Source of the DNA: an uncultured Acidimicrobiia bacterium
GTDB taxonomy: Bacteria > Actinomycetota > Acidimicrobiia > Acidimicrobiales > AC-14
NCBI GenBank assembly: GCA_963836205.1
Contig: CAWIIV010000010.1
Span: 1-12,243 of the forward strand
Length of the DNA stretch: 12,243 nucleotides
Reading direction: 5' to 3'
Both the position numbers and the translations under genes were made by a program. The notes under the pieces are model-generated. The model was given only the letters and a program-made list of their open reading frames with translations, was not told the origin of the DNA and ran no database searches. This document shows positions 1-12,243 of this stretch, in pieces (the first letter of the stretch is position 1; every line of letters begins with the position of its first letter).

Positions 1-6
1 CTAACT

Positions 7-34
7 TCCGCATCGTCTCCATCGTCCGTTCACA
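7..34 (+). promoter_or_regulatory. possible OmpR-family direct-repeat binding site
   Basis: TCCGCA (7-12), TCCATC (18-23) and TTCACA (29-34) recur with an 11-bp period upstream of the membrane protein/response regulator/kinase cluster. The match is degenerate. Confidence 0.25.
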
Positions 35-79
35 ATTGGGGCCGATCCTGAGGTCACGAACCTGACCAAGGAGCGAGAC

Positions 80-475
80 ATGAACAACCGGAAGGTGTGG
101 ACGGGCGTGCTGGCCGGGGTGCTGGCCGCCGGACTGCTGATCAGCGTGGCCTTCGGGGCCTACCGGGCGGGCGAGCGCCGGGAGGTCGTCACCCGGGTGG
201 CGGGCGACGGCGAGGTGGTGCGGGTCATCGACGACACTCATCGGGGGGGCGGCCACTGGGGCTACGGACCGGGACCGGGCTTCTTCCTCTTCCCCCTGCT
301 CGGCATCGGCCTGGTCGTCCTGCTCGTCGGCCGCGGCCGGCGCGGGTCCGGCGGGGGCGGGTGGTGCGGGCCCGGGCCCGGCAACGGTCCCGAGTCGAGG
401 ATGGAGGACTGGCACCGGCGGGCCCACGAACAGGCGCCGGCCGCGCCGGCCGCGCCGGCGCCGCCGACAAGCTGA
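80..475 (+). CDS. small membrane protein with two predicted TM segments, probable accessory/target of the two-component system
   Basis: SD AAGGAG at 68-73 before ATG 80. Hydrophobic stretches VWTGVLAGVLAAGLLISVAFG and FFLFPLLGIGLVVLLV, Gly/Pro-rich linkers and an EDWHRRAH tail. Confidence 0.8.
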   Translation: MNNRKVWTGVLAGVLAAGLLISVAFGAYRAGERREVVTRVAGDGEVVRVIDDTHRGGGHWGYGPGPGFFLFPLLGIGLVVLLVGRGRRGSGGGGWCGPGPGNGPESRMEDWHRRAHEQAPAAPAAPAPPTS

Positions 476-484
476 GATGGTGGG

Positions 485-1183
485 GTGACCAGGACCGTGC
501 TCGTCGTCGACGACGAGCCCAAGATCCTCCAGGTGGTGCGGGACTACCTGGCCGACGCCGGGTTCACGGTCACCACCGCCAGTGACGGGACGACGGCCCT
601 GGCCCAGGCCAGGGCCGTCCCGCCCGACCTGGTCGTCCTCGACCTGGGCCTGCCCGGCATCGACGGGCTCGACGTGGCCCGGGAGCTCCAGCGGCGGGGG
701 CCCGTCCCCATCATCATGCTCACCGCCCGCAGCGACGAGGTCGACCGGGTGCTCGGCCTGGAGCTGGGGGCCGACGACTATCTGGTGAAGCCGTTCAGCC
801 CCCGGGAGCTGGTGGCGCGGGTGCGGGCCGTGCTGCGCCGCACCGAGCGGGCGGCCACCGGGGCGGATGGCGGCGGGGCGGGGCCGTTCGCGGTGGGCGC
901 CGTGGCCGTCGACCCCGAGCGACGGCGGGTGACGGTGGCCGGGCGGGTGGTCGAGCTCACCGCCACCGAGTTCGAGCTGGTCGAACACCTGGCCCGCCAG
1001 CCGGGCCGGGTCTTTACCCGCTCCCAGCTGCTCGACGTGATCCACGGGCTGGCGGTGGAGTCCTACGAGCGGGCCATCGACGCCCACGTCAAGAACATCC
1101 GGCGCAAGCTCGAACCCGATCCCCACCGGCCCCGGTACCTGCTCACCGTCCACGGCGTCGGCTACCGGTTCGCCGAGGCCTGA
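485..1183 (+). CDS. OmpR/PhoB-family response regulator
   Basis: Receiver domain (VLVVDDE, phospho-Asp in LVVLDLGLP, LTAR, KPF) plus winged-helix domain (LTATEFELV, RAIDAHVKNIRRKLE, TVHGVGYRF). GTG start. Confidence 0.96.
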   Translation: MTRTVLVVDDEPKILQVVRDYLADAGFTVTTASDGTTALAQARAVPPDLVVLDLGLPGIDGLDVARELQRRGPVPIIMLTARSDEVDRVLGLELGADDYLVKPFSPRELVARVRAVLRRTERAATGADGGGAGPFAVGAVAVDPERRRVTVAGRVVELTATEFELVEHLARQPGRVFTRSQLLDVIHGLAVESYERAIDAHVKNIRRKLEPDPHRPRYLLTVHGVGYRFAEA

Positions 1184-2327
1184 TGCGAGGCCGCGGTCGT
1201 CCCCCGTGGTGGCCGGAGGGGAGTCGTGGCCGCCCGCGGGCGGGCCGCCGTGGGCTGGGCACCGGGGGCCTCCCCAGTTCCGCCGCCGTTTCCTGGTGGT
1301 GGCCCTCGTGGTGGTGGCGGTGCTGGTGGGTCTCGGGTTCGCGGTCGGGACGGCGGTGGACGGGTGGCACTGGGCCGGCGGGGGCCGTCCCGGGCCGGGG
1401 CCGGGTCCGGTGTCGGGGCCGGGGTCGGGTCGCAGCGGCGGACCGTGGTGGCCGCTCGGGATGATCGCCTTCGTCCTCCTCGTCGGCGGGATCGCCACCC
1501 GGCGGGCGTACCGCCGGCTGGGCGGTCCGGTGGCCGACCTGCTGGGCGCGGCCGAGCGCCTGGGCCGGGGCGACTACGACGTGCGGGTGGCGCCCGCCGG
1601 GCCCCGGGAGCTGCGGACCCTGGCGGAGACGATCAACGACGTCGCCGGCCGTTTGGCTGCGACCGAGGAGCAGCGACGGCGGTTCCTGGCCGACGTCACC
1701 CACGAGCTGCGCACGCCCCTGGCCGTCCTCCAGAGCGGCATCGAGGCCCAGGTCGACGGCATCCACCCCCGCGACGACCGCCACCTGGCCTCGCTGCTGG
1801 AGGAGACGCAGGTGTTGGGCCGGCTGGTCGACGACCTCCACACCCTCGCCCTGGCCGACGCCGGCCGGCTGGCGCTGCATCGCGAGCTCACCCACCCGGC
1901 GGCGCTGGTGGCCGACGCGGTCGAGGCCCACGCCGCCCTCGCCACCCGCAAAGGGGTGCGACTGGAGTCGACCGTGGCCGATGGCCTGCCCGAGATCGAC
2001 GTCGACCCCACCCGCATCCGCCAGGTCCTGGCCAACCTCCTGTCGAACGCGGTCCGCCACACCCCGGAGGAAGGGACGGTGGGCGTGGCCGTGACCAGGT
2101 CGAACGCGTCGGTCTGCTTCACGGTGACCGACTCGGGACCAGGCTTCGCGCCCGACCAGGTGGCGACGATCTTCGAGCGCTTCACCCGTTCGTCCGACTC
2201 CAGTGGAAGCGGCCTGGGCCTGTCCATCGCCCGCGACCTCGTCGTCGCCCACGGCGGCGCCATCCACGCGTCGAGCGAGCCCGGCCACGGCGCATCGGTC
2301 ACCTTCACCCTGCCCGCGGAGACCTGA
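1183..2327 (+). CDS. HAMP-domain sensor histidine kinase (BaeS-like); 5' end probably frameshifted at the G run 1218-1221, in-frame ORF 1206-2327
   Basis: Two TM segments, HAMP, H-box FLADVTHELRTPL, N-box QVLANLLSNAVRH, G1 DSGPG, F-box IFERF, G2 GSGLGL. ATG 1183 overlaps the regulator stop (TGATG) but is out of frame with the main body. Confidence 0.92.
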
Positions 2328-2341
2328 CGCGCCCGCGACCA

Positions 2342-2398
2342 GGCCAACTGGTGACAAAAATGGGTGTCTGGGTCACCGAAAACGTCACCGGTTCGGCC
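2342..2398. repeat. REP-like imperfect palindrome
   Basis: GGCCAACTGGTGAC (2342-2355) pairs with GTCACCGGTT(C)GGCC (2384-2398). Inner GGTG/CACC stem and an A-rich internal loop. Confidence 0.6.
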
Positions 2399-2440
2399 GG
2401 GGGCGGGCGGTCCGGCGTCGCCATCGGCTTCACTGGTCCG

Positions 2441-3262
2441 ATGGACGCGGAGGCCGAGGAGTTCGACACCGGGGAGGTGGCCGCCGTCTTCGGGCGGGCG
2501 GCCGCCACCTACGACACCGTCATCCCCTTCTTCACCACCTTCGGCGCCCGCCTGGTGGCCACGGCAGCCCCGGCCCTCGGCGAGCGGGTGCTCGACGTGG
2601 GCTGCGGGCGGGGAGCCACCCTCCTGCCGGCGTCGGTGGCGGTGGGACCCACGGGCCGGGTGGTGGGCATCGACCTGTCCGAGGAGATGGTGGCCCTGCT
2701 CGCCGCCGACCTGGAGGCCGCCGGCGTCGACAACGCCACGGTCCGGCTGGGCAACGCCCAGGCCCTCGACATGGAGGGCGCCACCTTCGACGTCGTCCTG
2801 TCGCAGATGGTGCTCCACCTGCTCCCCGACCCGCCCGCGGCCGCGGCCGAGTTCTTCCGGGTCCTGGTCCCAGGCGGCCGGTGCGTGACGTCCGTCCCGG
2901 CCGGAGCTCGCGGGTGGGAGTTCATGGGCTCGCTGTTCGAGGCGTTCGGGTCCCGGGCGGTGCGGCCCATGACTGTGCCGTTCCGCCCCGACTTCGACCT
3001 CCGGGCCACAGTGTCGGGTGCCGGCTTCGAGATCGCGAACGACCAGGAGGTGGAGGTCGAGTTCCACTTCCCTGACGAGCAGGGGTGGTGGGACTGGGGC
3101 TGGGGCAACGGGGTGCGCGCCCTCTACGAGATCCTGGCTCCCGACGAGCTCGAAGGACTCAAGGCCGCCGCCTTCGCCGAGCTGGCCACCCGCCGGACGC
3201 CGGAGGGGATCCCGATGATGCAGCGGGTCCGCATGGTGGTCGGGACGAAGCCGGCGGCCTGA
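2441..3262 (+). CDS. class I SAM-dependent methyltransferase (UbiE/Methyltransf_11-like)
   Basis: Motif I VLDVGCGRG, VVGIDLSEEM, FDVVLS, RVLVPGG. Start placed at ATG 2441 (MDAEAEEF); the upstream part of the 678-aa ORF is shadow of the kinase gene. Confidence 0.92.
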   Translation: MDAEAEEFDTGEVAAVFGRAAATYDTVIPFFTTFGARLVATAAPALGERVLDVGCGRGATLLPASVAVGPTGRVVGIDLSEEMVALLAADLEAAGVDNATVRLGNAQALDMEGATFDVVLSQMVLHLLPDPPAAAAEFFRVLVPGGRCVTSVPAGARGWEFMGSLFEAFGSRAVRPMTVPFRPDFDLRATVSGAGFEIANDQEVEVEFHFPDEQGWWDWGWGNGVRALYEILAPDELEGLKAAAFAELATRRTPEGIPMMQRVRMVVGTKPAA

Positions 3263-3290
3263 CGCCGCGACCGGGGCGCGTCCCCGACCC

Positions 3291-4469
3291 CTACTCCACC
3301 GCCCGCTCGGGCGCGCGGTTGACACCCACGCTGACCGCGACCAGGCCCGCCAACAAGAGGCCTGTGACCAGCACCGGCTCCGGCGACGCGGCGGAGGCCA
3401 CGATGAGGACGGCGGCCACGGGGACGGCGACGGTGCGGTGCCAGCCGGGCTGCTTGTCCCGGTAGTGGAGGGCCCACACCATCGTCACGTAGACCGCCAC
3501 CGGCACGGTGGCCGCGAATCCCGCCTCCAGGTCGGTGAGCTCGGAGTGGTGGGTGGCCTGGTCGACCGCCACCGCCAGGCCCGCCCCTGCGGCAGCCGCC
3601 GCCGCGAACACCACGTAGTGCCCGTACCCCCACAGGAAGGGGCCACCGAGCTTCTCGGCGAAGGCGGAGCGGGCCCGCTCCACCACGTGCTCGGCGGGCA
3701 GGTCGAAGTAGATCCACCACATGGAGAAGACCACGAGCAGCCCACCGACGACGACCGCGGCCAGGTCGCCGAAGACGGCCTCGTCATCGAGGGCGGCCTG
3801 CACCCCGACGGTGGCCGCCAGCAGCGTCTCCCCCAGCACGATGATCGTGAACAGCTGGTAGCGCTCGGCGATGTGGCGGGGGTGCCACGACGTCCGTCCG
3901 ACCGTCTCGGCCCACATCGGCACGGCCAGCTCGGCCGCCACCAGCACGAGGAAGGACGGGACGGCGAACCCGTCGGGCAGCGCCAGGCGGGCCAACCACG
4001 CGACCTGGAGGACGGCGATGCCTGCCGCGTATCTGAGGGCGCACGCCCGTCCCACCGGGTGGGAGGCGGCGGCCCGCAGCCACAGCCCCACCATCGCCGC
4101 CCGCATCACCACGTAGCCGGCCACGATGACCTCGAAGTGGCCGCCGTCGAACGCCCGGGGGACGCCGGCGGCCAGGATGAGCACCCCCGTCATCATCACC
4201 AGCACCGCCAACCGGTAGGTGGCGTCGTCGGTGTCGTAGGCGGACGCGAACCAGGTGAGGTTCATCCACGCCCACCAGATGGCGAAGAACACCAGGGGGA
4301 ATCCGACCAGGGCGTCGCCGGCGTGGCCGTCGACCAGGCCGTGGTGGAGGCTGGCCGCGGCCTGGGCGACGGCCACCACGAAGGTGAGGTCGAAGAACAG
4401 CTCCAGCGGGGTCGCCGCCCGGTGTTCCTCGAGGGGGTCCCGGGACGACATGCGCACGTGCAATTGCAT
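3291..4469 (-). CDS. ltrA: low temperature requirement protein A (LtrA family) polytopic membrane protein
   Basis: ATPLELFFDLTFVVAV, WWAWMNLTWFAS.YD, HIAERYQLFTIIVLGE, WWIYF, WGYGH motifs and many TM segments. ATG 4469 is preceded by CAGGAT plus 6 nt. Confidence 0.92.
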   Translation of the reverse strand: MQLHVRMSSRDPLEEHRAATPLELFFDLTFVVAVAQAAASLHHGLVDGHAGDALVGFPLVFFAIWWAWMNLTWFASAYDTDDATYRLAVLVMMTGVLILAAGVPRAFDGGHFEVIVAGYVVMRAAMVGLWLRAAASHPVGRACALRYAAGIAVLQVAWLARLALPDGFAVPSFLVLVAAELAVPMWAETVGRTSWHPRHIAERYQLFTIIVLGETLLAATVGVQAALDDEAVFGDLAAVVVGGLLVVFSMWWIYFDLPAEHVVERARSAFAEKLGGPFLWGYGHYVVFAAAAAAGAGLAVAVDQATHHSELTDLEAGFAATVPVAVYVTMVWALHYRDKQPGWHRTVAVPVAAVLIVASAASPEPVLVTGLLLAGLVAVSVGVNRAPERAVE

Positions 4470-4512
4470 CCCGCCATCCTGTCCCGCGCGCCCCGCCACC
4501 GACAGGCCCGGC

Positions 4513-4554
4513 AAATACGACTTGTTTGGTCGGCTTTATCGACATAGTCTGTCG
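4513..4554. promoter_or_regulatory. tandem palindromic operator-like boxes overlapping a -10 element
   Basis: CGAC-TTGTTTG-GTCG (4518-4532) and CGAC-ATAGTCT-GTCG (4540-4554), 22 bp apart. TAGTCT (4545-4550) lies 7 nt before ATG 4558. Confidence 0.6.
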
Positions 4555-4557
4555 GAC

Positions 4558-4632
4558 ATGCGGTCACCAGCCACGTCGAACGACACCTGGGGCGAGGCGT
4601 CCCGGCTGAAGTTCGACGAGTGCTGTCGCTGA
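4558..4632 (+). CDS. putative leaderless Cys-containing leader peptide MRSPATSNDTWGEASRLKFDECCR
   Basis: 24 codons ending TGC TGT CGC TGA, directly after a -10-like hexamer and 44 nt upstream of a cysteine dioxygenase-family gene. Confidence 0.65.
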   Translation: MRSPATSNDTWGEASRLKFDECCR

Positions 4633-4635
4633 CCG

Positions 4636-4671
4636 GACCTCCCGCCCATCCCCCGCTCGTCCCTGGAGGTC
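4636..4671 (+). promoter_or_regulatory. anti-SD/SD sequestering stem
   Basis: GACCTCC (4636-4642) is the exact reverse complement of GGAGGTC (4665-4671), which contains the SD of the downstream gene. Confidence 0.6.
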
Positions 4672-4676
4672 GTCCG

Positions 4677-5144
4677 TTGTCCCTCACCGCCCTGCCGGTG
4701 CGCGTCCCGTCCGCCATGCTCACGTCCATCGCCACCGGCCTGGCCGCGGTGGTGACACCGGCCGACCTCGACCTCGACGACGACCGGGCCTACCTCCGGC
4801 TGCTGACGACCGACGCCTACGAGGCCTGGCTGATCGCCTGGGCCCCGGGTGGGTCCCTCGACCTCCACGACCACGGCGGCTCGGCGGGGGCGGTGGCGGT
4901 GGTGGACGGCGAACTGCTCGAGCGCTACACCGACCGGCTACGCCCGCTCCCCCTGCGGACCAACCGGGTCCGGGCCCGCGAGACGCTCACCGTCGGGCCC
5001 ACACGGGTCCACGGCATGTGGAACCCTGGTCCGACGAACGCACTCTCCGTCCACGTGTACTCACCGCCGCTGTCGACGATGACCTTCTACGACCCCCGGC
5101 TGCTCACCCCCGTCCGCACCGAGCGGAGTGATCTCGCGGTATGA
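4677..5144 (+). CDS. cysteine dioxygenase-family (thiol dioxygenase) cupin
   Basis: SD GGAGGT then TTG 4677. Motifs WLIAWAPG, LHDHGGS, RVHGMWN (3-His iron site) and ALSVHVYSPPL (Ser-His-Tyr motif). Confidence 0.9.
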   Translation: MSLTALPVRVPSAMLTSIATGLAAVVTPADLDLDDDRAYLRLLTTDAYEAWLIAWAPGGSLDLHDHGGSAGAVAVVDGELLERYTDRLRPLPLRTNRVRARETLTVGPTRVHGMWNPGPTNALSVHVYSPPLSTMTFYDPRLLTPVRTERSDLAV

Positions 5145-5148
5145 CGGC

Positions 5149-5514
5149 GTGACCGCCCGCATCGACGAGCTGTTGGCCGAAGTCCGCCGGCAGCTGCCCC
5201 ACCGGCCGACGGCCGCCGAGGTGCCCGCACTTCGCCGGCGGGGCGCCCTCCTGGTCGACATCCGACCGGTCGAGCAACGATCCCGCGACGGCGAGATCGA
5301 GGGCGCCGTCGTCGTCGACCGCAACGTCCTCGAGTGGCGTCTCGACCCGACGTCGCCCCACCGCATCCCCGAGGTCACCGACCTCGACCAGGAGGTGGTC
5401 GTCGTCTGCAACGAGGGCTACGCCTCCAGCCTGGCCGCCCTCAGCCTCCAGCAGCTCGGGTTCCACCGGGCGACCGACCTCGACGGCGGCATCCAGGCCC
5501 TGCTCGCCGGCTAA
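5149..5514 (+). CDS. single-domain rhodanese-like sulfurtransferase
   Basis: LLVDIRP, GEIEGA, LEWRLDP, active-site loop VVVCNEGYAS, DLDGGI. Start GTG 5149 (alternative GTG 5128), immediately after the dioxygenase stop. Confidence 0.88.
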   Translation: MTARIDELLAEVRRQLPHRPTAAEVPALRRRGALLVDIRPVEQRSRDGEIEGAVVVDRNVLEWRLDPTSPHRIPEVTDLDQEVVVVCNEGYASSLAALSLQQLGFHRATDLDGGIQALLAG

Positions 5515-5560
5515 GGTCCGTGGGGCCGGCGACGACCCCCACCCGGGTACCCTCGACGTG

Positions 5561-6418
5561 ATGGACCACCTGCTGTGGGAGTCCCGTCCGAAGCTGCGGC
5601 GCCCGGTGCTGCTGGCCGCCTTCGAGGGATGGAACGATGCCGGCGACGCGGCCTCGTCCGCCGTCCGCTACCTGCGCGACCGCTGGCAGGCCAAGCGGTT
5701 CGCCACCATCGACCCGGAGGACTTCTTCGACTTCTCGTCGACCCGGCCCCACGTCCGCCTCAACGACGACATGGCCCGGGAGATCGCGTGGCCGTCGAAC
5801 GAGCTGTCGGCGGCGTCGCTGCCAGGCACGTCACGCGACGTGATCGTGCTGTTGGGCACGGAGCCCCAGCTCAAGTGGCGGACGTTCACCGAGGAGCTGG
5901 TGGGCGTGGCCACCTCCATGGGCGTGGAGCTGGTGGTCACCCTGGGCGCGCTGCTGGCCGACGTGGCCCACACCCGTCCCGTCCGGGTGACGGGCACCGC
6001 CGCCGACAACGAGCTGGTGCAGCGCCTGGGCCTGACCCGGTCGACGTACGAGGGCCCCACCGGCATCGTGGGCGTCCTGCACGAGGCCTTCAGCCGGGCC
6101 GAGATCCCGTCGGCGTCGCTGTGGGCGGCGGTGCCCCACTACGTGGCCGCCACCCCGTCCCCCAAGGCGTCGCTGGCCCTGGTCGAACGGGCCGCCCGCC
6201 TGCTGTCGACGTCGCTGTTCACCGCCGACCTCCAGGTGATGGCCGCCGACTACGAGCGCCAGGTGAGCGAGGTCGTCGACAGCGACGACGACGTGGCCGC
6301 CTACGTCCGCCGCCTGGAGGACAACGCCGACGACCCCGATGAGAGCGGCCGCCTGGAGCTGATGTCGGGCGACGCCCTCGCCGACGAGCTCGAACGCTTC
6401 CTGCGGGAGCAGGACTAA
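5561..6418 (+). CDS. PAC2 family protein (proteasome assembly chaperone-like)
   Basis: AAFEGWNDAGDAAS, IDPEDFFDF...RP, GTEPQLKW, LGALLADVAHTRP, YEGPTGIVGVL, WAAVPHYV, ELERFLR. TACCCT plus 7 nt before the ATG. Confidence 0.93.
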   Translation: MDHLLWESRPKLRRPVLLAAFEGWNDAGDAASSAVRYLRDRWQAKRFATIDPEDFFDFSSTRPHVRLNDDMAREIAWPSNELSAASLPGTSRDVIVLLGTEPQLKWRTFTEELVGVATSMGVELVVTLGALLADVAHTRPVRVTGTAADNELVQRLGLTRSTYEGPTGIVGVLHEAFSRAEIPSASLWAAVPHYVAATPSPKASLALVERAARLLSTSLFTADLQVMAADYERQVSEVVDSDDDVAAYVRRLEDNADDPDESGRLELMSGDALADELERFLREQD

Positions 6419-6446
6419 CCCGCCGGCCGGCGCCGGGCCGTGCGGG
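6419..6446. terminator. GC-rich hairpin between convergent genes
   Basis: CCCGCCGGCC (6419-6428) pairs with GGCCG(T)GCGGG (6436-6446). No U-tract. Confidence 0.45.
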
Positions 6447-6450
6447 CCGG

Positions 6451-7893
6451 TTACGGCTCGATGCCGAAGACGGCCAGTTTCTTGGCTGCGTCGGGGAAGA
6501 CCGCCGACGCGGCCGCGACGAAGTCGGCCGGCGTGGCGATGTCGTAGGCGTTCTGGGCGACGAAGACCCGCAGGGCGCAGTCGACCAGATCGGGGGTGCC
6601 CAGGGCGCCCAGGGCCTGGGCTCCCTGGGTGTAGACCCCGTCCTGATAGGCGTCGGGCTCTTGGGTCCAGAACGACATGGGCTCGCCCAGCCGGCCCTGG
6701 GCGACCCGGGGGACCTGTAGCCCCTCATAGAAGGCAAGGATGTGGTCGTAGCGCGCCTCGACGTACGTGGCGAGGCCCTCGTCGAGCCACGGGTCGCGGC
6801 CCTGGTCGTTGCCCACCAACCCGTAGAACCATTGGTGACCGACCTCGTGGGTGGTGATCTCGCCCTCGGTGAAGGGCCCCAACATGATGTGGGACGGGTA
6901 CTCGATCCCTCCGCCCAGCCCAGGTGTGAGCGCGACGGTGAGGGTGCTCCACGGATAGGGGCCGTAGCGCCCGGCGAAGGCTTCGAGGACGTCGACGGTC
7001 TGGTCGAGGAAGAACTGGGCGTTGCCCGGCATCCCGGGATGGCGGCCGACGGTGACGGTCACCGGGTCGGGCGCCAGGGCCACGGCGGTGACGAGGTCGG
7101 TGAAATGGCCGACGGACAGGGCCACGTCCCGCACCGCGGTGGCCAGGAACCGGTTGGGGTTGTCGGCCGTGGGCGCGCCGCTGGCCAGGACGTCGTAGCC
7201 GGCGGGGACGGTGACGGTGAGGTCGAAGTCGGCGGTGGGCGCGGTCGACGCCTCCGCGAAGTCGCCCACCGCCGCCTCCCGGGCCCAGCCCACGCCCGTC
7301 TCCCACGGCAGGATCGGGAAGAACGAGCCCAGGCGCATCGAGTCGGCTTCGAGGGCGAGGCGGTCGTTGGCGGGGCCGGGAACGGCGAGCGTCCATGGCA
7401 TGGCGATCTCGACGGTGGTGCCGGCGGCGATGGTGCGGCCGGGATCGACGACGAGGGTGGTGTCGTCCGGCTGGGTGGCGGGCGCGGGCTGGCCGTCGAC
7501 CGTCACCGGCCCGGGGTCGAGGCGGATGCCGGCGTCCGCTGGGCGGGGGCCGTTGGGCCACAGCCGGAAGACGATCTCGTTGGTGGGCAGGTCGGGCGTG
7601 AACGCCACCCGCAGGTCGCCGTCGACCGCGCCCTCCGCCGGCCGGATGTCGACGTGGAGGACGTACCGGGAGCGGTCGGCGCGGGGTTCGGCCCGGGCGG
7701 GGATGGCGGGGCACGACGGGTCGGTGGCGACCGGCAGGGACGACTGAGGGGCGCTGGTGTCCGGGGCGGTGGACGGGGTGGCTCGCCCGCTGCCACCGCC
7801 TCGGTCGCCGCCGTCGTCGCCGTCGCCACGGCAGGCGGCGAGGACCAGGGCGAGGACGACGCCCACCACCAGGCGGGAGGGGCGCCGGCTCAC
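6451..7893 (-). CDS. lipoprotein zinc metallopeptidase, M1/gluzincin type
   Basis: GTG 7893 gives a signal peptide with lipobox LAAC. GGIEY (GAMEN-like), HEVGH plus downstream WLDEGLA, and distal Tyr in VYTQG. Confidence 0.88.
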   Translation of the reverse strand: MSRRPSRLVVGVVLALVLAACRGDGDDGGDRGGGSGRATPSTAPDTSAPQSSLPVATDPSCPAIPARAEPRADRSRYVLHVDIRPAEGAVDGDLRVAFTPDLPTNEIVFRLWPNGPRPADAGIRLDPGPVTVDGQPAPATQPDDTTLVVDPGRTIAAGTTVEIAMPWTLAVPGPANDRLALEADSMRLGSFFPILPWETGVGWAREAAVGDFAEASTAPTADFDLTVTVPAGYDVLASGAPTADNPNRFLATAVRDVALSVGHFTDLVTAVALAPDPVTVTVGRHPGMPGNAQFFLDQTVDVLEAFAGRYGPYPWSTLTVALTPGLGGGIEYPSHIMLGPFTEGEITTHEVGHQWFYGLVGNDQGRDPWLDEGLATYVEARYDHILAFYEGLQVPRVAQGRLGEPMSFWTQEPDAYQDGVYTQGAQALGALGTPDLVDCALRVFVAQNAYDIATPADFVAAASAVFPDAAKKLAVFGIEP

Positions 7894-7932
7894 CGTCCCA
7901 TAGTGACAGGCGCTCGCGGGCAAACTGGGGGC

Positions 7933-8433
7933 ATGGCCTCCCGCACACCAACGTGTGTGTGGAGTGTGTCGGACGAATTGGTGGTGGCCCTCGACACCCG
8001 CTTCGGTCCGCCGGTCGACGCCTACGTCAACGGGTCGCAGGTGTGGCTGCGCGACGACGGGCCGGGCGGGATCACGGTCGAGTGGCGCCTCCACCCGGTG
8101 GCCGGGTACCAGCGGCCGGCGGGTATGGGCACCTACGAGGTCTTCGACGAGATCTCGGCCGCTCTCGGCGCGGGGTCGGCGCCGGTCGCCTCCGTCGACA
8201 CGCTGTGGGACGGGTTGGAGGCGTTCCCCGCCTACGGCGACGAGGTGGAGCCGGCCACCCTGGCCGCAGCCTGCACCGACGCCCTGGGCCGCCCGCCCGA
8301 CGCCGCCGGCCTGGCCGACCACCAGGGGATCGGCGACGCGTGGGAGCACTCGGGAGGCCAGGTGTCGATCGTTTCCGCCCTCCTCGAGCAACTCTCGCCC
8401 GGTCCCGACCCCGCCAATTCGGACCGTCGGTAG
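7933..8433 (+). CDS. hypothetical protein (166 aa)
   Basis: CAAACT plus 6 nt then ATG. Globular-looking composition (FGPPVDAYVNGSQVWL, EWRLHPVAGY, LWDGLEAFPAYGD) with GC-rich third codon positions. Confidence 0.78.
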   Translation: MASRTPTCVWSVSDELVVALDTRFGPPVDAYVNGSQVWLRDDGPGGITVEWRLHPVAGYQRPAGMGTYEVFDEISAALGAGSAPVASVDTLWDGLEAFPAYGDEVEPATLAAACTDALGRPPDAAGLADHQGIGDAWEHSGGQVSIVSALLEQLSPGPDPANSDRR

Positions 8434-8469
8434 GGCGATGAATCCGCGCCGTTCGGGCGAACCCCGGGA

Positions 8470-9783
8470 TCAGCGGCGGCGGCGGCCGCCTCGACGCCGG
8501 CCCGAACGACCGTGGGACGGGTCGTCGCCGTCGTGGTCGTCGGTCCGCCCGCCGAGGTCGACCACCAGCGCGTCCTCGTCACCGGTGGGAGCGGCGTCGC
8601 GACCCGAGCGCCGCCGCCGCTGCCGGCCGCCGATGTCGTGGACCTCCCCCTCCTGCCAGAACAAGTCGGAGTCGCTGTAAGGATTGGGCGCCTCCGCCTC
8701 GGCCGCCCGCGCGTCCTGCATGACGGCCGCGTCCCCCACGGACTCGTCGTCGCCAAGGCCGCCGATGCCAGGGGCGCCGATGTCGCCCGCCCCTGAGACA
8801 CCGGGATCGCCGGCCCCGGAGTCGCCCTCGGAGACGCCAGCTCCGGAGTCGCCGACGATGTCGTCCGCGGCGGCGTCGCCAAGGGACGCGCCGGAGTCGC
8901 CACCGGAGGAGGCATGTGCGACGGCGGTGACGTCCCCGGAGTCGCCGTCGGACTCACTGGTGGCGGGGTCCTTCGAGTCGCCTTGCTCGTCGGAGTCGTT
9001 CTCCTCCGAGTCCTCGTCCTCGTCGTCGCCTGAGTCGTCGTCGCCTGAGTCGTCGTCGTCCGAGTCGTCGTCGTCCGAGTCGTCGTCGTCCGAGTCGTCG
9101 TCGTCCGAGTCGTCGTACTCATCGTCGTCGTACTCGTCGTCGTCGTACTCGGAGTCGTCGACAGCCTCGGCGGGCTCGGAGTCGTCGACAGCCTCGGCGG
9201 GCTCGGCGGCGGGCTCGGCGGCGGGTACGGCCGGCTCGGCGGGCGAGGGCTCGTCGGCAGCAGCCGCAGCGGCGGCGGCCGCGGCGTCGGACTTCCGGCC
9301 GGCGTCGATGAGCCTGCGGAGGGCCTCGGCCTCTTCCCGGACGCTCGCTGACTCCTGGTCGCCGGTAGCGGTCTCCGGTCCTTGCGCGGCCATCTTGGGG
9401 GCCGGCTGCTCGACGACGGCGCTGTACACGCGGGCCCAGCGCACGAGTTCGTCCTCGACGCCCATGATGAACACGCCCGCCACCTCGACGTCGCGCCCGG
9501 CGCCGTGGAGCTCGACCCACACCGTGCCCTCGTTGGACGCCGAGCGCACCAGGCTCAGACGGAAGCCGGGCTCGCTCTCGAAGATCGCCTGCCAGTTGCG
9601 CTTGACCTGCATCGATCCCCGGAAGTTCCGGCTCGGATAGATGGGCTGGATGCTCTCGAAGTCGGGGTGGAGGCACTTGGCGATGGCGTCGGCGTCGTGG
9701 CGATTGGCCGCGTCGACGAAGCGGCTGACCACGGTGACCGGATCGGACACGGCCTTTCGACGACGAAAACGGCGCAGCAGCAA
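8470..9783 (-). CDS. SnoaL/NTF2-like domain protein with long acidic low-complexity C-terminal tail
   Basis: SD AGGAGGT, 7 nt, then TTG 9783 (alternative GTG 9750). NTF2-like segment VVSRFVDAANRHDADAIAKCLHPDF...VRWARVY followed by an Ala/Asp/Glu/Ser/Gly-rich tail. Confidence 0.82.
   Translation of the reverse strand: MLLRRFRRRKAVSDPVTVVSRFVDAANRHDADAIAKCLHPDFESIQPIYPSRNFRGSMQVKRNWQAIFESEPGFRLSLVRSASNEGTVWVELHGAGRDVEVAGVFIMGVEDELVRWARVYSAVVEQPAPKMAAQGPETATGDQESASVREEAEALRRLIDAGRKSDAAAAAAAAAADEPSPAEPAVPAAEPAAEPAEAVDDSEPAEAVDDSEYDDDEYDDDEYDDSDDDDSDDDDSDDDDSDDDDSGDDDSGDDEDEDSEENDSDEQGDSKDPATSESDGDSGDVTAVAHASSGGDSGASLGDAAADDIVGDSGAGVSEGDSGAGDPGVSGAGDIGAPGIGGLGDDESVGDAAVMQDARAAEAEAPNPYSDSDLFWQEGEVHDIGGRQRRRRSGRDAAPTGDEDALVVDLGGRTDDHDGDDPSHGRSGRRRGGRRRR
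9020..9225. repeat. compound coding tandem repeat (15-bp x9, 27-bp x2, 12-bp x2)
   Basis: TCGTCGTCGCCTGAG x2, TCGTCGTCGTCCGAG x4 and TCGTCGTACTCnnnG x3 (9020-9154). CTCGGAGTCGTCGACAGCCTCGGCGGG x2 (9148-9201). CTCGGCGGCGGG x2 (9202-9225). Confidence 0.92.
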
Positions 9784-9808
9784 GAAGACGACCTCCTGAG
9801 GACCGGGG

Positions 9809-10531
9809 TTACGGTAGTTCGTCGTTCCCGGCGCCGCCGGTAGCGGCGGTGCGCCAGAGGGGTTGCCGGGGCTGGTCGAAGAGCACTTCCACCGGCTCCC
9901 CCCGGATGGCCTCGAAGGCCGGCACCTGCCACCGGCCGGCTCCGGCAAGAGGGGTCGGCAGGGCGTCCTCCGCGAAAAAGCCCACATCGCGGCACTCGAG
10001 CGGGTGGGCCTGGAGCTCACCGCCCACCAGCCGGCAGTGGAACACCAGGGAGTACAAGGGGATGCGGGTGAAGCCGAGCCGCATCCCATCGAGGACCGCG
10101 ATGAGGCGCACCGGCTCGACCATCATCCCCGTCTCCTCCAGCACCTCCTTCACCGCCACCTCGGCCGGCGAGTAGCCCACGTCGGCCCATCCCGTCGGGT
10201 ACAGCCACATCCCCGAGTCCGACCGCTGGACGAGGAGGATCTCGCCCGCGTCGTTGCCGACGACGGCGCCGATCGCCACCTTGGGCGTCACGTAGCCGGC
10301 CACGCCCTGGCCGACGTGGGCCAGCCACTCCTCCACCCGGGCCACCGGGTCCGACCGGTGGCCGGCCGCGACCCCGATGTCGGCAGCTACCCGCAGCACC
10401 TCCTCGAACCGCTCCCGCTCGTAGAGGCTGTCCGTGAACCCGAGGCCGGTGCGGGCGATGGCGGCCAACGCCTCGCTCCATCGCAGCAGGTCGTGACCCG
10501 AAACCCCGCGGCCGGCATCCGGATCACTCAC
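9809..10531 (-). CDS. Nudix hydrolase with N-terminal helical (Nudix_N, YjhB-like) domain
   Basis: LAAIARTGLGFT..LYERERF, GYVTPKVA, and Nudix box GWADVGYSPAEVAVKEVLEETG. TAGGGT plus 8 nt before GTG 10531. Confidence 0.92.
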   Translation of the reverse strand: MSDPDAGRGVSGHDLLRWSEALAAIARTGLGFTDSLYERERFEEVLRVAADIGVAAGHRSDPVARVEEWLAHVGQGVAGYVTPKVAIGAVVGNDAGEILLVQRSDSGMWLYPTGWADVGYSPAEVAVKEVLEETGMMVEPVRLIAVLDGMRLGFTRIPLYSLVFHCRLVGGELQAHPLECRDVGFFAEDALPTPLAGAGRWQVPAFEAIRGEPVEVLFDQPRQPLWRTAATGGAGNDELP

Positions 10532-10579
10532 CGCAGCCGACCCTACCGTCCGGCTCTCGATCTGCGAAGATGGCGGGCC

Positions 10580-10762
10580 GTGAGCGTCAGGGCGGACTGC
10601 CGCCACTACTCCCGCCGGTCGCTCCCCACCGGCGACTCGGTCGAACGCTGCCGCCTCGACGTGGCCGAACAGGCCCCCTTCGCCTGCCCCGACGACTGCC
10701 TCTTCTTCGAGCCCCGGCCCATCAGCGACACCGGCTGGCAGCGCCCGGGCGACCGCCGCTGA
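10580..10762 (+). CDS. small four-Cys hypothetical protein (60 aa)
   Basis: MSVRADCRHYSRRSLPTGDSVERCRLDVAEQAPFACPDDCLFFEPRPISDTGWQRPGDRR. GC-rich third positions; fills the gap divergent from the Nudix gene. Confidence 0.75.
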   Translation: MSVRADCRHYSRRSLPTGDSVERCRLDVAEQAPFACPDDCLFFEPRPISDTGWQRPGDRR

Positions 10763-10974
10763 CTCGCAGTCTTCGAGGCCGGGGGTCGCAGCTCGAGTCC
10801 TGCTGTGGGTACTAACCGCAGGGCCACGGCACGAGCAGAGCCACCAATCGAAATGCGCAAACCACAGAGCGCGGTCGAACGCTTTCGTTGCGTAGTGAGG
10901 ACGTGGCGCGGCGAGCCGCTGCCTTCCCCGCGGCAAGAGTTTCGTGCCCCATCTCTCCGCCCGGTCGAGTGTGC

Positions 10975-10995
10975 AGAAAGGTACGAGATATGTCC
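10975..10995 (+). pseudogene. probable 5' stub (SD + ATG TCC) of a host gene interrupted by the IS
   Basis: AGAAAGG (10975-10981), 8 nt, ATG (10990), TCC, then the IS left end. Confidence 0.5.
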
Positions 10996-12239
10996 GGCGG
11001 CTTCAAGGGGTCACCGCAACGACCATGGCGATCAGGGAGGCTCCCTGGTCTGACTGAGGGGAGCGCCGGTGAGACATCTGACGGTGCAGGAACGTGCTCG
11101 GGCACGGCGTCTGGACCGGGAGGGCCTCTCGTTGCGGGAGATTGCCCGGGACTTGAGCAGGTCGGCTTCGGGGGTCCGGCTGGTCCTGCTCCGCGACCGT
11201 GGAGTCGATCCGGCGGCGCCGCCGCCGGCGGAACCCTGCTTCGTCGCCCGGGCCGGTCCGCTCGACGCCCGGTCCCGGGAGGAGATCGGACGTGGCCTGG
11301 TTCGAGGCGAGACCTTCACCGCCATCGCCCGCCATATCGGGCGCACGACCTCGACGGTGAGCCGGGAGGTCAAGGCCAACGGCGGTCGGCGTGGCTATCG
11401 GGCCATGGCCGCCCAGCTGGCATCCAGCGAGCGGGCGAGGCGGCCCAAGGACACCCACCTGGAGACCCGCCCCGAGCTGGCCGCGTGGGTCATCGCCCGC
11501 CTGCAGGAGCTGTGGTCGCCCAAGCAGATCGCCGACCAGTTGCCGATCGAGTTCCCGCACGATCCGATGATGCGGGTGTCCTACGAGACGATCTACCAGT
11601 CGCTGTTCGTGCAGGGTCGGGGGGCTCTGCGCAAGGAACTCACCGCCTGCCTGCGCAGCGGGCGGGCCACCCGCCGGCCCCAGGGCCGGCTCCAGACTCG
11701 GGGCAAGATCCCGGCGATGGTGATGATCAGCCAACGCCCGGCGGAGGCGGAGGACCGTGCGGTTCCCGGCCACTGGGAGGGCGACCTCATCATCGGCAAG
11801 GACGGCAGGAGCGCGGTGGGGACCCTGGTGGAGCGATCGACCCGCTACGTGATGCTGCTGCACCTGCCCGGCAACCACGGCGCCGAGGCGGTGCGGGCGG
11901 CGATGGCGGCCGCCATCCAACGACTGCCGGCAGAACTGTGGAAGTCGGTGACCTGGGACCAGGGCAAGGAGATGTCCCAGCACCGCCAGCTGCTCGTCGA
12001 CACCGGCGTGCAGATCTACTTCTGCGATCCCCACTCGCCCTGGCAGCGGGGCAGCAACGAGAACACCAACGGCCTGCTGCGCCAGTGGATGCCCAAGGGC
12101 ACCGACCTGAGCCGATTCAGCCCCGACGACCTCCTCGAGATCGAACGTCTGCTCAACGGTCGGCCCCGAGAGACCCTCGGCAAGGCGAAGCCCTGTGACA
12201 AGCTCGCCGAGGTTCTTGCGTCGACCGCTTGAGTCCGCC
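10996..12239 (+). mobile_element. complete IS30-family insertion sequence (1244 bp) with 3-bp target duplication
   Basis: IRL GGCGGCTTCAAGGGGTCACCGCAA versus reverse-complemented IRR GGCGGACTCAAGCGGTCGACGCAA, 19/24 identical. TCC flanks both ends (10993-10995 and 12240-12242). Confidence 0.9.
11069..12232 (+). CDS. IS30-family DDE transposase
   Basis: HTH segments (LSLREIARDL; IARHIGRTTSTVSREV), WSPKQI, VSYETIYQ, GHWEGDL, TWDQGKEM, PWQRGSNENTNGLLRQ. The stop codon lies inside the IRR. Confidence 0.96.
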   Translation: MRHLTVQERARARRLDREGLSLREIARDLSRSASGVRLVLLRDRGVDPAAPPPAEPCFVARAGPLDARSREEIGRGLVRGETFTAIARHIGRTTSTVSREVKANGGRRGYRAMAAQLASSERARRPKDTHLETRPELAAWVIARLQELWSPKQIADQLPIEFPHDPMMRVSYETIYQSLFVQGRGALRKELTACLRSGRATRRPQGRLQTRGKIPAMVMISQRPAEAEDRAVPGHWEGDLIIGKDGRSAVGTLVERSTRYVMLLHLPGNHGAEAVRAAMAAAIQRLPAELWKSVTWDQGKEMSQHRQLLVDTGVQIYFCDPHSPWQRGSNENTNGLLRQWMPKGTDLSRFSPDDLLEIERLLNGRPRETLGKAKPCDKLAEVLASTA

Positions 12240-12243
12240 TCCT

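Follow-up and report, generated by a model that had tools for sequence, protein, structure and literature searches.

Introduction

Cysteine-responsive leader open reading frames (ORFs) have been shown experimentally only in mycobacteria, where they operate through runs of Cys codons. According to the preprint of Canestrari et al. (bioRxiv 10.1101/834739), leaderless poly-Cys short ORFs of mycobacteria relieve attenuation at low cysteine and form a "Cys ribulon"; at least two consecutive Cys codons were required in that study, some conserved non-Cys residues were noted, and transcription of Ms5788A was reported as constitutive. Leader peptides with Cys runs have also been predicted before the cys/cbs operons of Mycobacterium, Propionibacterium, and Bifidobacterium, and Rho-dependent control was proposed for these actinobacterial leaders (Seliverstov et al. 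2005, PMC1262725). In this study, we report the analysis of a 24-codon ORF located ahead of a cysteine dioxygenase (CDO)-like gene and a rhodanese gene in a DNA stretch of 12,243 nucleotides (nt) from an uncultured Acidimicrobiia bacterium (Acidimicrobiales, AC-14; assembly GCA_963836205.1, contig CAWIIV010000010.1, positions 1 to 12,243), which is referred to as the window and whose numbering is used throughout. The ORF was also compared with the leader peptides TnaC, which senses tryptophan, and SpeFL, which senses ornithine, both of which arrest the ribosome at the stop codon, with the involvement of Rho.

The reading that we favor, and to which we give about an even chance of being right, is that the short ORF would sense cysteine in cis, by way of the ribosome that translates it, and would add to the control by an Rrf2-type repressor, with the operon on when cysteine is scarce. 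Most likely, leader and operator together let these bacteria tune their sulfur-scavenging genes to the cysteine supply. The initial annotation of this DNA had regarded the ORF as an analogue of the mycobacterial attenuators, and a cis-acting Cys sensor is still the best reading of it; nevertheless, the element turned out not to be specific to CDO operons, its tandem Cys codons are not conserved, and the peptide itself is conserved. The family to which it belongs suggests a second design of Cys-responsive leader, made up of one rare codon and a conserved peptide and spread over at least 8 genome families in a class with few cultured members.

The resemblance to the mycobacterial ORFs, as these are described in the preprint, lies in an unannotated leaderless short ORF that forms the first cistron of sulfur or cysteine operons and carries Cys codons at its 3′ end, in the several independent copies per genome, and in the proposal that pausing keeps the downstream ribosome-binding site (RBS) open at low cysteine. 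In contrast to the 2–8 consecutive Cys codons reported there, a single UGU is conserved here, and 25 of the 29 loci of the family lack any run of two or more Cys codons. Moreover, a 16-residue core is strongly conserved, the Cys codons are unpaired with the Shine-Dalgarno (SD) sequence in the folds, and a repressor operator stands against the reported constitutive transcription of Ms5788A, in a different bacterial class. No sequence similarity to the mycobacterial poly-Cys ORFs was found and no homology is claimed. With the other predicted actinobacterial leaders, as they have been described, the element shares its occurrence in actinobacteria, the Cys codons near the stop, and the lack of a terminator hairpin, and Rho control is conceivable in both; those leaders, however, have Cys runs and precede biosynthetic cysK/cbs-type operons, whereas one Cys, a conserved core, and scavenging or CDO operons are found here. 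TnaC and SpeFL are likewise short conserved leader peptides with key residues at a fixed distance from the stalling point, and they too regulate through a ribosome that halts where the leader ends, but their stalling takes place at the stop codon in response to a free amino acid, whereas in the present family a rare sense codon is invariant and the distance from the core to the stop is not fixed (1–4 residues, with three stop codons in use).

Conservation of the Short ORF

The short ORF extends from ATG 4558 to TGA 4630–4632 (4558–4632, forward strand) and its product would be MRSPATSNDTWGEASRLKFDECCR. It is preceded, at a distance of 7 nt (4551–4557), by the −10-like hexamer TAGTCT (TANNNT type; 4545–4550, forward strand), and from this geometry alone we infer that it is leaderless. 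The program-made ORF list contains only a longer in-frame ORF with a GTG start (4255–4632) and not the 24-amino-acid (aa) ORF itself. The hexamer, the 7-nt gap, and the 24-aa ORF missing from the list, all noted in the initial annotation, were borne out, as was its description of the genes located 3′ of the short ORF, in which Pfam recognized a CDO_I-family cupin followed by a rhodanese.

Upstream of the short ORF lies a 25-base-pair (bp) palindrome (4513–4537), referred to as the box and described below. The CDO-like protein was found in 8 of 41 relatives (E ≤ 0.001) and in 10 of 58 genomes of the family (E ≤ 1e-10), while a metagenome search gave 115 stretches, of which the best 80 were kept. 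Among the 91 CDO-homologue loci examined, part of them without upstream DNA, a box-like palindrome (17 or more of 25 positions matching, at most 450 nt upstream) was present in 30, whereas none was present in the 78 control segments, which came from within the CDO gene or 3′ of it. Behind the box, 15 loci have a short ORF starting 19–20 nt after it and then a CDO gene led by an SD sequence; in 7 loci the CDO gene itself starts at the position of the short-ORF start, 6 have no start codon at that position, and L005 and L092 are ambiguous with respect to these three main types. The alignment of orthologous CDO loci that the initial annotation had proposed as a check supported the element, with a Cys codon near the stop in 15 of the 15 CDO loci that have the short ORF.

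The CDO-linked peptides include MRFPTTWNDTWGETQRQSFDERCR, MPRSPTTNDTWGQSRRLTFDERCH, and MLAPFGILPATWNDPWGQASRLSFDERCR, together with the diverged MPTSILTDLRTQPGTSLFDPLCP. Their conserved residues are encoded by varying codons (ACC/ACG, GGC/GGT, TTC/TTT, GAG/GAA, and CGC/CGG/CGA), and the indels are in frame, giving forms of 8, 24, and 29–37 codons. The ratio of nonsynonymous to synonymous polymorphism (pN/pS) in the frame of the short ORF was 0.42, vs. 1.28 and 1.74 in the other frames, for eight sequences with the last 20 codons pooled, an indicative value that includes non-independent pairs of kin and carries no test statistic. For 21 aligned sequences it was 0.47 in frame vs. 1.28 and 1.67 out of frame, which argues for purifying selection on this frame. 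Because its in-frame start lies at a fixed distance from the palindrome and the peptide is conserved with synonymous changes, the short ORF is, to judge from the sequence, more than a chance ORF.

The family extends beyond the CDO genes. A profile of 11 peptides (alignment A2), used in a six-frame search of 401 genomes of the class, gave matches in 18 genomes at E ≤ 0.01; after inspection, the core was present at 13 places in 10 genomes besides that of the window, and 7 weaker places (L153–L155 and L157–L160) were without it. These 10 genomes represent 7 further genome families, and the short-ORF family spans at least 8 genome families, with a total of 29 loci in Acidimicrobiia-type genomes and metagenomes. 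The core reads N-D-x-W-G-E-x-x-R-x-x-F-D-E-x-C and is followed by 1–4 variable residues and then by TGA, TAG, or TAA, the peptides being 24–37 aa long. Counted from the Cys as position 0, D−14, G−11, D−3, E−2, and C0 are shared by all 21 aligned sequences, and each of W, R, and F is missing from just one of them.

Downstream of the new places, Pfam identified CDO and rhodanese genes (L145, L152, and L144, in which the rhodanese was not seen), CDO, beta-carbonic anhydrase, and rhodanese genes (L147, with the Pro_CA gene inside the operon), CDO and TauD genes (L151), a TauD gene (L162), a gene for an NMT1-type binding protein (L146, L150, L164, L163, and L156, with an ATP-binding cassette (ABC) ATPase gene next in three of them), genes for 3′-phosphoadenosine 5′-phosphosulfate (PAPS) reductase and sirohaem synthase (L149), and a gene for a protein without assigned function (L148). 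Genome G393 carries three copies of the element, located before CDO plus rhodanese, before TauD, and before a binding protein with its ABC ATPase, and G347 carries two; several copies per genome before different sulfur operons are the pattern of a cis leader. The box, the −10-like hexamer, and an in-frame ATG or GTG 18–20 nt after the box were found at 12 of the 13 new places, the exception being L164, in which an SD-like GAGGGG lies ahead of the short ORF.

The 24-aa peptide had no match in Pfam or NCBIfam at E values up to 10. The literature gave no description of such peptides or of any leader ahead of CDO genes in bacteria, in a comparison that did not extend to the gene table of the mycobacterial study, and the peptide family is apparently undescribed. 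One of the CDO loci, L016 (G058:C6), has a GTG at the leaderless position that does not share the frame of the conserved peptide, and its CDO gene has an internal TGA; this locus is either decaying or part of an assembly rich in indel errors.

The Invariant Cysteine Codon

The only Cys codons of the short ORF in the window are TGC 4621–4623 and TGT 4624–4626, followed by CGC and the stop, just as the initial annotation had indicated. The importance that it attached to their tandem arrangement holds for the window and not for the family, since two Cys codons in a row occur in only 4 of the 29 loci (the window, its copy on contig C24, L062, and L144). Because only one Cys is conserved, the tandem is lineage-specific.

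The conserved Cys codon (4624–4626, forward strand) is TGT in 29 of 29 loci, a count made up of 26 loci plus L002 and L098 plus L062, and the profile search was blind to codon choice. In the genome of the window, TGT accounts for only 339 of 3815 Cys codons (8.9%; 895 long ORFs with a high G+C content at the third codon position), and all 6 non-conserved Cys codons of these short ORFs are TGC. The neighboring conserved residues favor common codons, namely GAC (17–21 of 21), TTC (19 of 21), GGC (18 of 21), and GAG (18 of 21). Because the sole tRNA-Cys gene has the anticodon GCA, UGU is read by G:U wobble (the tRNA-Sec and tRNA-Cys sites are C7:273666–273761 and C8:131363–131435). A slowly read, "hungry" codon under selection is the pattern expected of ribosome-mediated sensors. 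In every member the Cys is located 1–4 codons ahead of the stop, so that a ribosome held at this codon already extends to the end of the short ORF. Where a single codon separates the Cys from the stop position, which is the case in 15 loci, [AC]CGG comes right after the stop in 14 (4630–4636 in the window).

Since the genome encodes a tRNA-Sec (anticodon tca), the organism probably reads some UGA codons as selenocysteine. Read-through of the short-ORF UGA in this way was rejected: the frames relative to CDO are those of chance (in frame in 5 of 13 loci), no conserved peptide continues beyond the stop, the stop is replaced by Gly or Arg codons and not by Cys codons, and Rfam gave no match to a selenocysteine insertion sequence. 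No sign was found that the UGA of the short ORF is a selenocysteine codon.

The Upstream Operator

The palindrome at 4513–4537, AAATACGAC-TTGTTTG-GTCGGCTTT, is a candidate operator similar to the Rrf2/IscR type-1 sites. It is centered on the −35-like sequence TTGTTT (4522–4527, forward strand), located 17 nt before the −10-like hexamer, a spacing that is kept in related loci. Hexamers such as TAGGAT, TAGGCT, TACGGT, and TATGGT are found in these loci 6–7 nt 5′ of ATG or GTG, and 27 of 28 loci combine a −10-like hexamer 6–7 nt before the start with an in-frame start codon 18–20 nt past the box. When compared with the IscR type-1 consensus of E. coli, ATASYYGACTRWWWYAGTCRRSTAT, the box of the window matches at 18 of 25 positions and the perfect palindrome of the family at 20 of 25; the sites called in the paper that gives this consensus are reported with matches of 68% and 76% (PMC3899308). 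As in IscR type-1 sites, a 25-bp palindrome with GAC..GTC arms overlaps the promoter, but the regulon here would be one of sulfur assimilation and scavenging, not of Fe-S cluster assembly.

A 19-nt version of the box, scanned in one genome per species, was found at 43 loci, with about 17 expected by chance under uniform base composition. Sixteen of the 43 lie in unrelated phyla without a common context. The 27 others comprise CDO short-ORF loci (4), DUF4395 genes (9), genes for Cys/Met pyridoxal phosphate enzymes of the O-acetylhomoserine sulfhydrylase type (metY-like; 8), a sulfite/nitrite reductase gene (1), a gene for a transporter of the MFS family (1), sites located 4–6 nt before an Rrf2-family regulator gene in metagenome-assembled genomes of Lentisphaerota (2; L033 and L057), and sites with no context assigned (2). 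The metY-like, DUF4395, sulfite-reductase, and MFS sites belong to Acidimicrobiia. These contexts come from Pfam for 7 representatives and from N-terminal similarity for the rest. The genome of the window has two full-length Rrf2 genes (C25:8298 and C6:379111) and more box-like sites (C17:15256 and C11:107051), one of them beside a DUF4395 gene and a weaker one before a beta-carbonic-anhydrase-like gene. On these grounds, the palindrome would mark the sulfur regulon of an Rrf2-family repressor. The initial annotation, which called the short ORF a candidate switch, had overlooked the operator at 4513–4537; with this operator, the ORF would be a second layer of regulation and not the sole switch.

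In a further group of metagenome CDO loci (L064–L084), the palindrome is replaced by another conserved AT-rich upstream motif, tttccccttgtaaa... and then tacagt, which is probably the site of another regulator or a promoter. One of the two Rrf2 genes (C25:8298–8693, L140) adjoins a gene for the bacterial proteasome activator (Bpa).

Proposed Mechanism

The element would act in two layers. In the first, an Rrf2-family repressor would bind the palindrome over the −35 sequence and gate transcription, as suggested by the motif and its regulon. In the second, every transcript would open with the 24-codon ORF, a putative translated leader peptide in which the ribosome would have to decode the lone rare UGU just ahead of the stop. 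With Cys-tRNA(Cys) in short supply, the ribosome would dwell at this codon, in a pause that the conserved nascent chain probably sharpens and, being paused at the 3′ end of the short ORF, would keep the downstream message expressible. The routes could be that pairing between the D-E codons and a complementary element of the spacer is prevented, that an anti-SD helix is weakened, and/or that Rho is hindered on the C-rich spacer. As a result, expression of the CDO-like/rhodanese operon would rise under cysteine or sulfur limitation, like the operons of TauD, the transporters, and PAPS reductase.

Provided that the element is a Cys sensor, we consider it rather likely that a pause at UGU gives the ON state, the polarity shown for the mycobacterial poly-Cys ORFs (bioRxiv 10.1101/834739), because a shortage of sulfur is when the cell needs TauD, sulfonate-type transporters, and PAPS reductase, and blocking them during cysteine starvation would be maladaptive. 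The inverted polarity suggested in the initial annotation, with expression when cysteine is plentiful, is disfavored by the presence of the same leader before TauD, sulfonate-type ABC transporter, and PAPS-reductase operons. The CDO-like/rhodanese pair probably serves sulfur scavenging rather than being a valve for cysteine disposal and, with CDO as a scavenger, the paradox behind that suggestion is removed. The family would thereby tie CDO-like enzymes to the scavenging of sulfur.

A more speculative extension, which we regard as doubtful, is that the core would be a new nascent-peptide sensor which, in the exit tunnel, makes the wobble-read incorporation of Cys rate-limiting or binds a sulfur metabolite. 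If this were true, one codon would be enough to switch sulfur scavenging sharply across the whole regulon in a little-studied class of actinobacteria, and it would operate in series with an Rrf2 repressor of the Fe-S type. The family is also a testable case of how far one hungry codon can regulate and of whether the nascent chain amplifies its effect, and in practice it yields a signature for annotating missed first cistrons as well as a predicted sulfur regulon with its operator.

The Spacer and RNA Folding

The spacer between the short-ORF stop and the SD sequence (4633–4664, forward strand, 32 nt) is C-rich (C 20, G 5, A 2, and T 5). It includes, 3 nt 5′ of the SD, the element CGCTCGTC (RNA CGCUCGUC; 4654–4661, forward strand), which is complementary to GACGAGTG (4615–4622, forward strand), that is, to the D-E codons GACGAG (4615–4620) plus 2 nt. 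RNAduplex gave for this pairing 8 bp and −13.1 kcal/mol, with a p of 0.08 vs. shuffles. The reverse complement of the D-E hexamer was found in the own spacer of 8 of 23 loci, vs. 1.2 expected, before four kinds of downstream gene and as the sole enriched offset among 49 scanned, an enrichment that is partly post hoc in that the scan was made after the motif had been noticed. In addition, the anti-SD sequence GACCTCC (4636–4642, forward strand) pairs with 4665–4671 in both the minimum free energy and the centroid fold of 4558–4700, and the modeled probability that the SD of the window is unpaired rises from 0.01 in the free RNA to 0.40 with a ribosome placed at UGU or at the stop. Because the spacers are C-rich and G-poor and Rho is encoded in the genome, a tna-like Rho mechanism acting on the C-rich spacer is possible; the terminator scan found no intrinsic terminator in 4350–4800. 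The Cys codons themselves are not among the partners of the SD in any of these folds.

Several results weigh against the sensor reading. Across the family, no RNA mechanism is supported. Three-state folding (free, ribosome at UGU, and ribosome at the stop) over 11 loci gave no consistent opening of the SD, with L003 and L060 changing in the opposite direction and 7 of the 11 loci barely changing. Duplexes of the sensor segment with the spacer had energies no better than those of dinucleotide shuffles (mean z −0.30, vs. −0.03 for the control segment; p ≤ 0.05 in 2 of 23 loci). A hairpin that includes the stop codon reached p < 0.05 in only 4 of 13 loci (L073, L077, L082, and L083), with one A:U-to-C:G exchange (GAACGG/CCGUUC vs. 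GACCGG/CCGGUC), and the fold of the whole leader of the window was not significant (z −1.30). The anti-SD after the stop is confined to the genus of the window and L083; furthermore, in the geometry of the window, a ribosome with UGU in the A site would leave most of the anti-SD free, and simple sequestration could therefore also give the opposite polarity. The skew of C over G rises to 0.30 per 60 nt, roughly 2.4 standard deviations over the window mean yet below the window maximum, so that a rut-like skew is present but not exceptional for the window. With respect to the codon, a single Cys codon makes a weak sensor when compared with known attenuators, the amino-acid conservation is stronger than a pure codon sensor needs, and the invariant U of TGT could reflect a constraint on the RNA; no conserved pairing partner was found for this U. 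The peptide core is also dispensable in the genus of the window, having decayed there: L003 and L060 are 8-codon forms (MRTMLRCR and MRTTMRCR) that have lost 16 codons in frame relative to the 24-codon form, L004 is diverged, and L062 has lost its stop. Finally, a strict sigma-70 consensus scan of 4350–4800 called no promoter.

A riboswitch or another known RNA was rejected as an explanation, since Rfam had no match at its gathering thresholds in the whole window; in 4350–4800 it gave only a chance miRNA match (E 1.8).

Alternative Explanations

The spacing within the peptide bears first on a ligand-sensing arrest peptide, in which the nascent chain (W, G-E, R, and F-D-E-x-C), lying in the exit tunnel, would respond to a small sulfur metabolite or use its own thiol to stall elongation or release, and the stalled ribosome would then control the access of Rho or the exposure of the RBS. 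The core is conserved in amino acids and keeps a constant distance to the Cys, and it is the N-terminus that varies in length (peptides of 24 to 37 aa), as expected if the residues were read from the peptidyl-transferase center outward, and the C-rich and G-poor spacer, the presence of Rho, and the lack of an intrinsic terminator would suit such a device. The distance from the core to the stop, however, varies (1–4 residues, with TGA, TAG, or TAA), and therefore an arrest at the stop misfits and any arrest would be at or near the Cys codon. In addition, a sensor made of peptide only leaves the invariant rare codon unexplained, the 8-aa forms persist in the genus of the window, and the skew of the spacer is not exceptional. 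On balance, we consider this explanation unlikely.

Purifying selection on the peptide and its invariant Cys would also be expected of a free micropeptide acting in trans, e.g., as a thiol or persulfide carrier for the rhodanese or the CDO-like enzymes, or as a partner of Rrf2. In the metagenome locus L073 (1015–1656), CGA replaces the stop of the short ORF, which then reads in frame into CDO, a point in favor of this reading. In L062, also from a metagenome, GGA stands in place of the stop and the extended frame does not match that of CDO; both losses may be natural or sequencing errors. When the L073 fusion was used as query, no fused peptide-CDO protein was found in a collection of 5.8 billion proteins (candidates of 117–375 aa only). 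Likewise, the short ORF is in frame with CDO in 5 of 13 loci, close to the one in three that chance alone would give, and the peptide belongs to no Pfam or NCBIfam family. The divergent copies at the 5′ ends of different operons, the invariant rare codon, and the fixed leaderless position point instead to an action in cis, and a micropeptide in trans is quite unlikely.

An inverted polarity was considered for the lineage of the window. Here the short ORF would be a translational coupling gate in which only ribosomes that reach the stop melt the anti-SD helix, and CDO would be made when cysteine is plentiful. The anti-SD of the window begins 4 nt past the stop and forms a helix with the SD, and in toeprints the edge of the ribosome lies about +15 or +16 from the P site; by this geometry, a ribosome at the stop would cover the anti-SD, while one at UGU would cover at most its first base. 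The enzyme, an Arg-type CDO homologue, could, as far as its sequence tells, destroy cysteine. Against this, the SD was opened equally by both modeled ribosome positions, and the anti-SD position is kept only in one genus and L083. The leader family also stands before the genes of TauD, sulfonate-type transporters, and PAPS reductase, and to shut these off when cysteine is scarce would be maladaptive; the same operator, moreover, marks sulfite reductase and metY-like genes. We give this gate little credence.

Lastly, that an Rrf2-type repressor does all the regulation and the short ORF is a leaderless device for ribosome loading or reinitiation, or an evolutionary remnant, is very improbable, for although the operator precedes leaderless CDO genes without a short ORF in 7 loci, as well as metY-like and DUF4395 genes, and decayed 8-aa forms exist, it leaves unexplained the in-frame purifying selection, the invariant rare Cys codon, and the fact that one and the same core recurs ahead of unrelated operons across at least 8 families.

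Downstream Genes and Genomic Context

The sensor reading concerns an operon whose first gene after the short ORF encodes the CDO-family cupin (155 aa; 4677–5144, forward strand; Pfam CDO_I, E 5.6e-14, above the cut-off). Its probable start is TTG 4677, located behind the SD sequence GGAGG (4665–4669, forward strand), and a GGAGG 7–10 nt 5′ of the start codon is kept in the orthologues; the stop is at 5144. A start at GTG 4620 was rejected, given that in L012 the stop of the short ORF falls in the CDO frame and that the SD and start are kept at 4665–4679. The nearest solved structures are the Bacillus subtilis CDO entries 3eqe and 4qm8 (E 1.8e-14). Residues H64, H66, and H112 and the motif S124-x-H126-x-Y128 are invariant in alignment A1, in agreement with the description of PF05995, and the protein is a predicted cupin with a 3-His iron site and a Ser-His-Tyr motif.

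The single-domain rhodanese gene starts at GTG 5128 or 5149 and ends at 5514 (forward strand; Pfam Rhodanese, E 2.4e-13), thus overlapping or abutting the CDO stop, and in NCBIfam it showed weak GlpE/MoeB-type similarity alone. It is followed in the window by a PAC2-family gene (5558–6418), and upstream of the short ORF an LtrA-family gene lies on the opposite strand.

The source assembly comprises 4.05 Mb in 25 contigs and is 88.6% complete; the window corresponds to its high-G+C contig C10. Positions 1–10995 of the window are 99.09% identical to C24:77640–88666, which indicates that the second stretch is a putative strain variant or recent duplicate, and within this genome the element was found only at the present locus and in its C24 copy. 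The two differ at 5 positions in 4300–5600, 3 of them inside the 75-nt short ORF: the change at 4569 is synonymous, while those at 4600 (S to P) and 4610 (K to T) alter the peptide, all at non-conserved positions. An IS30-like transposase gene (HTH_38 and rve domains) is located at the end of the contig (11069–12232, forward strand).

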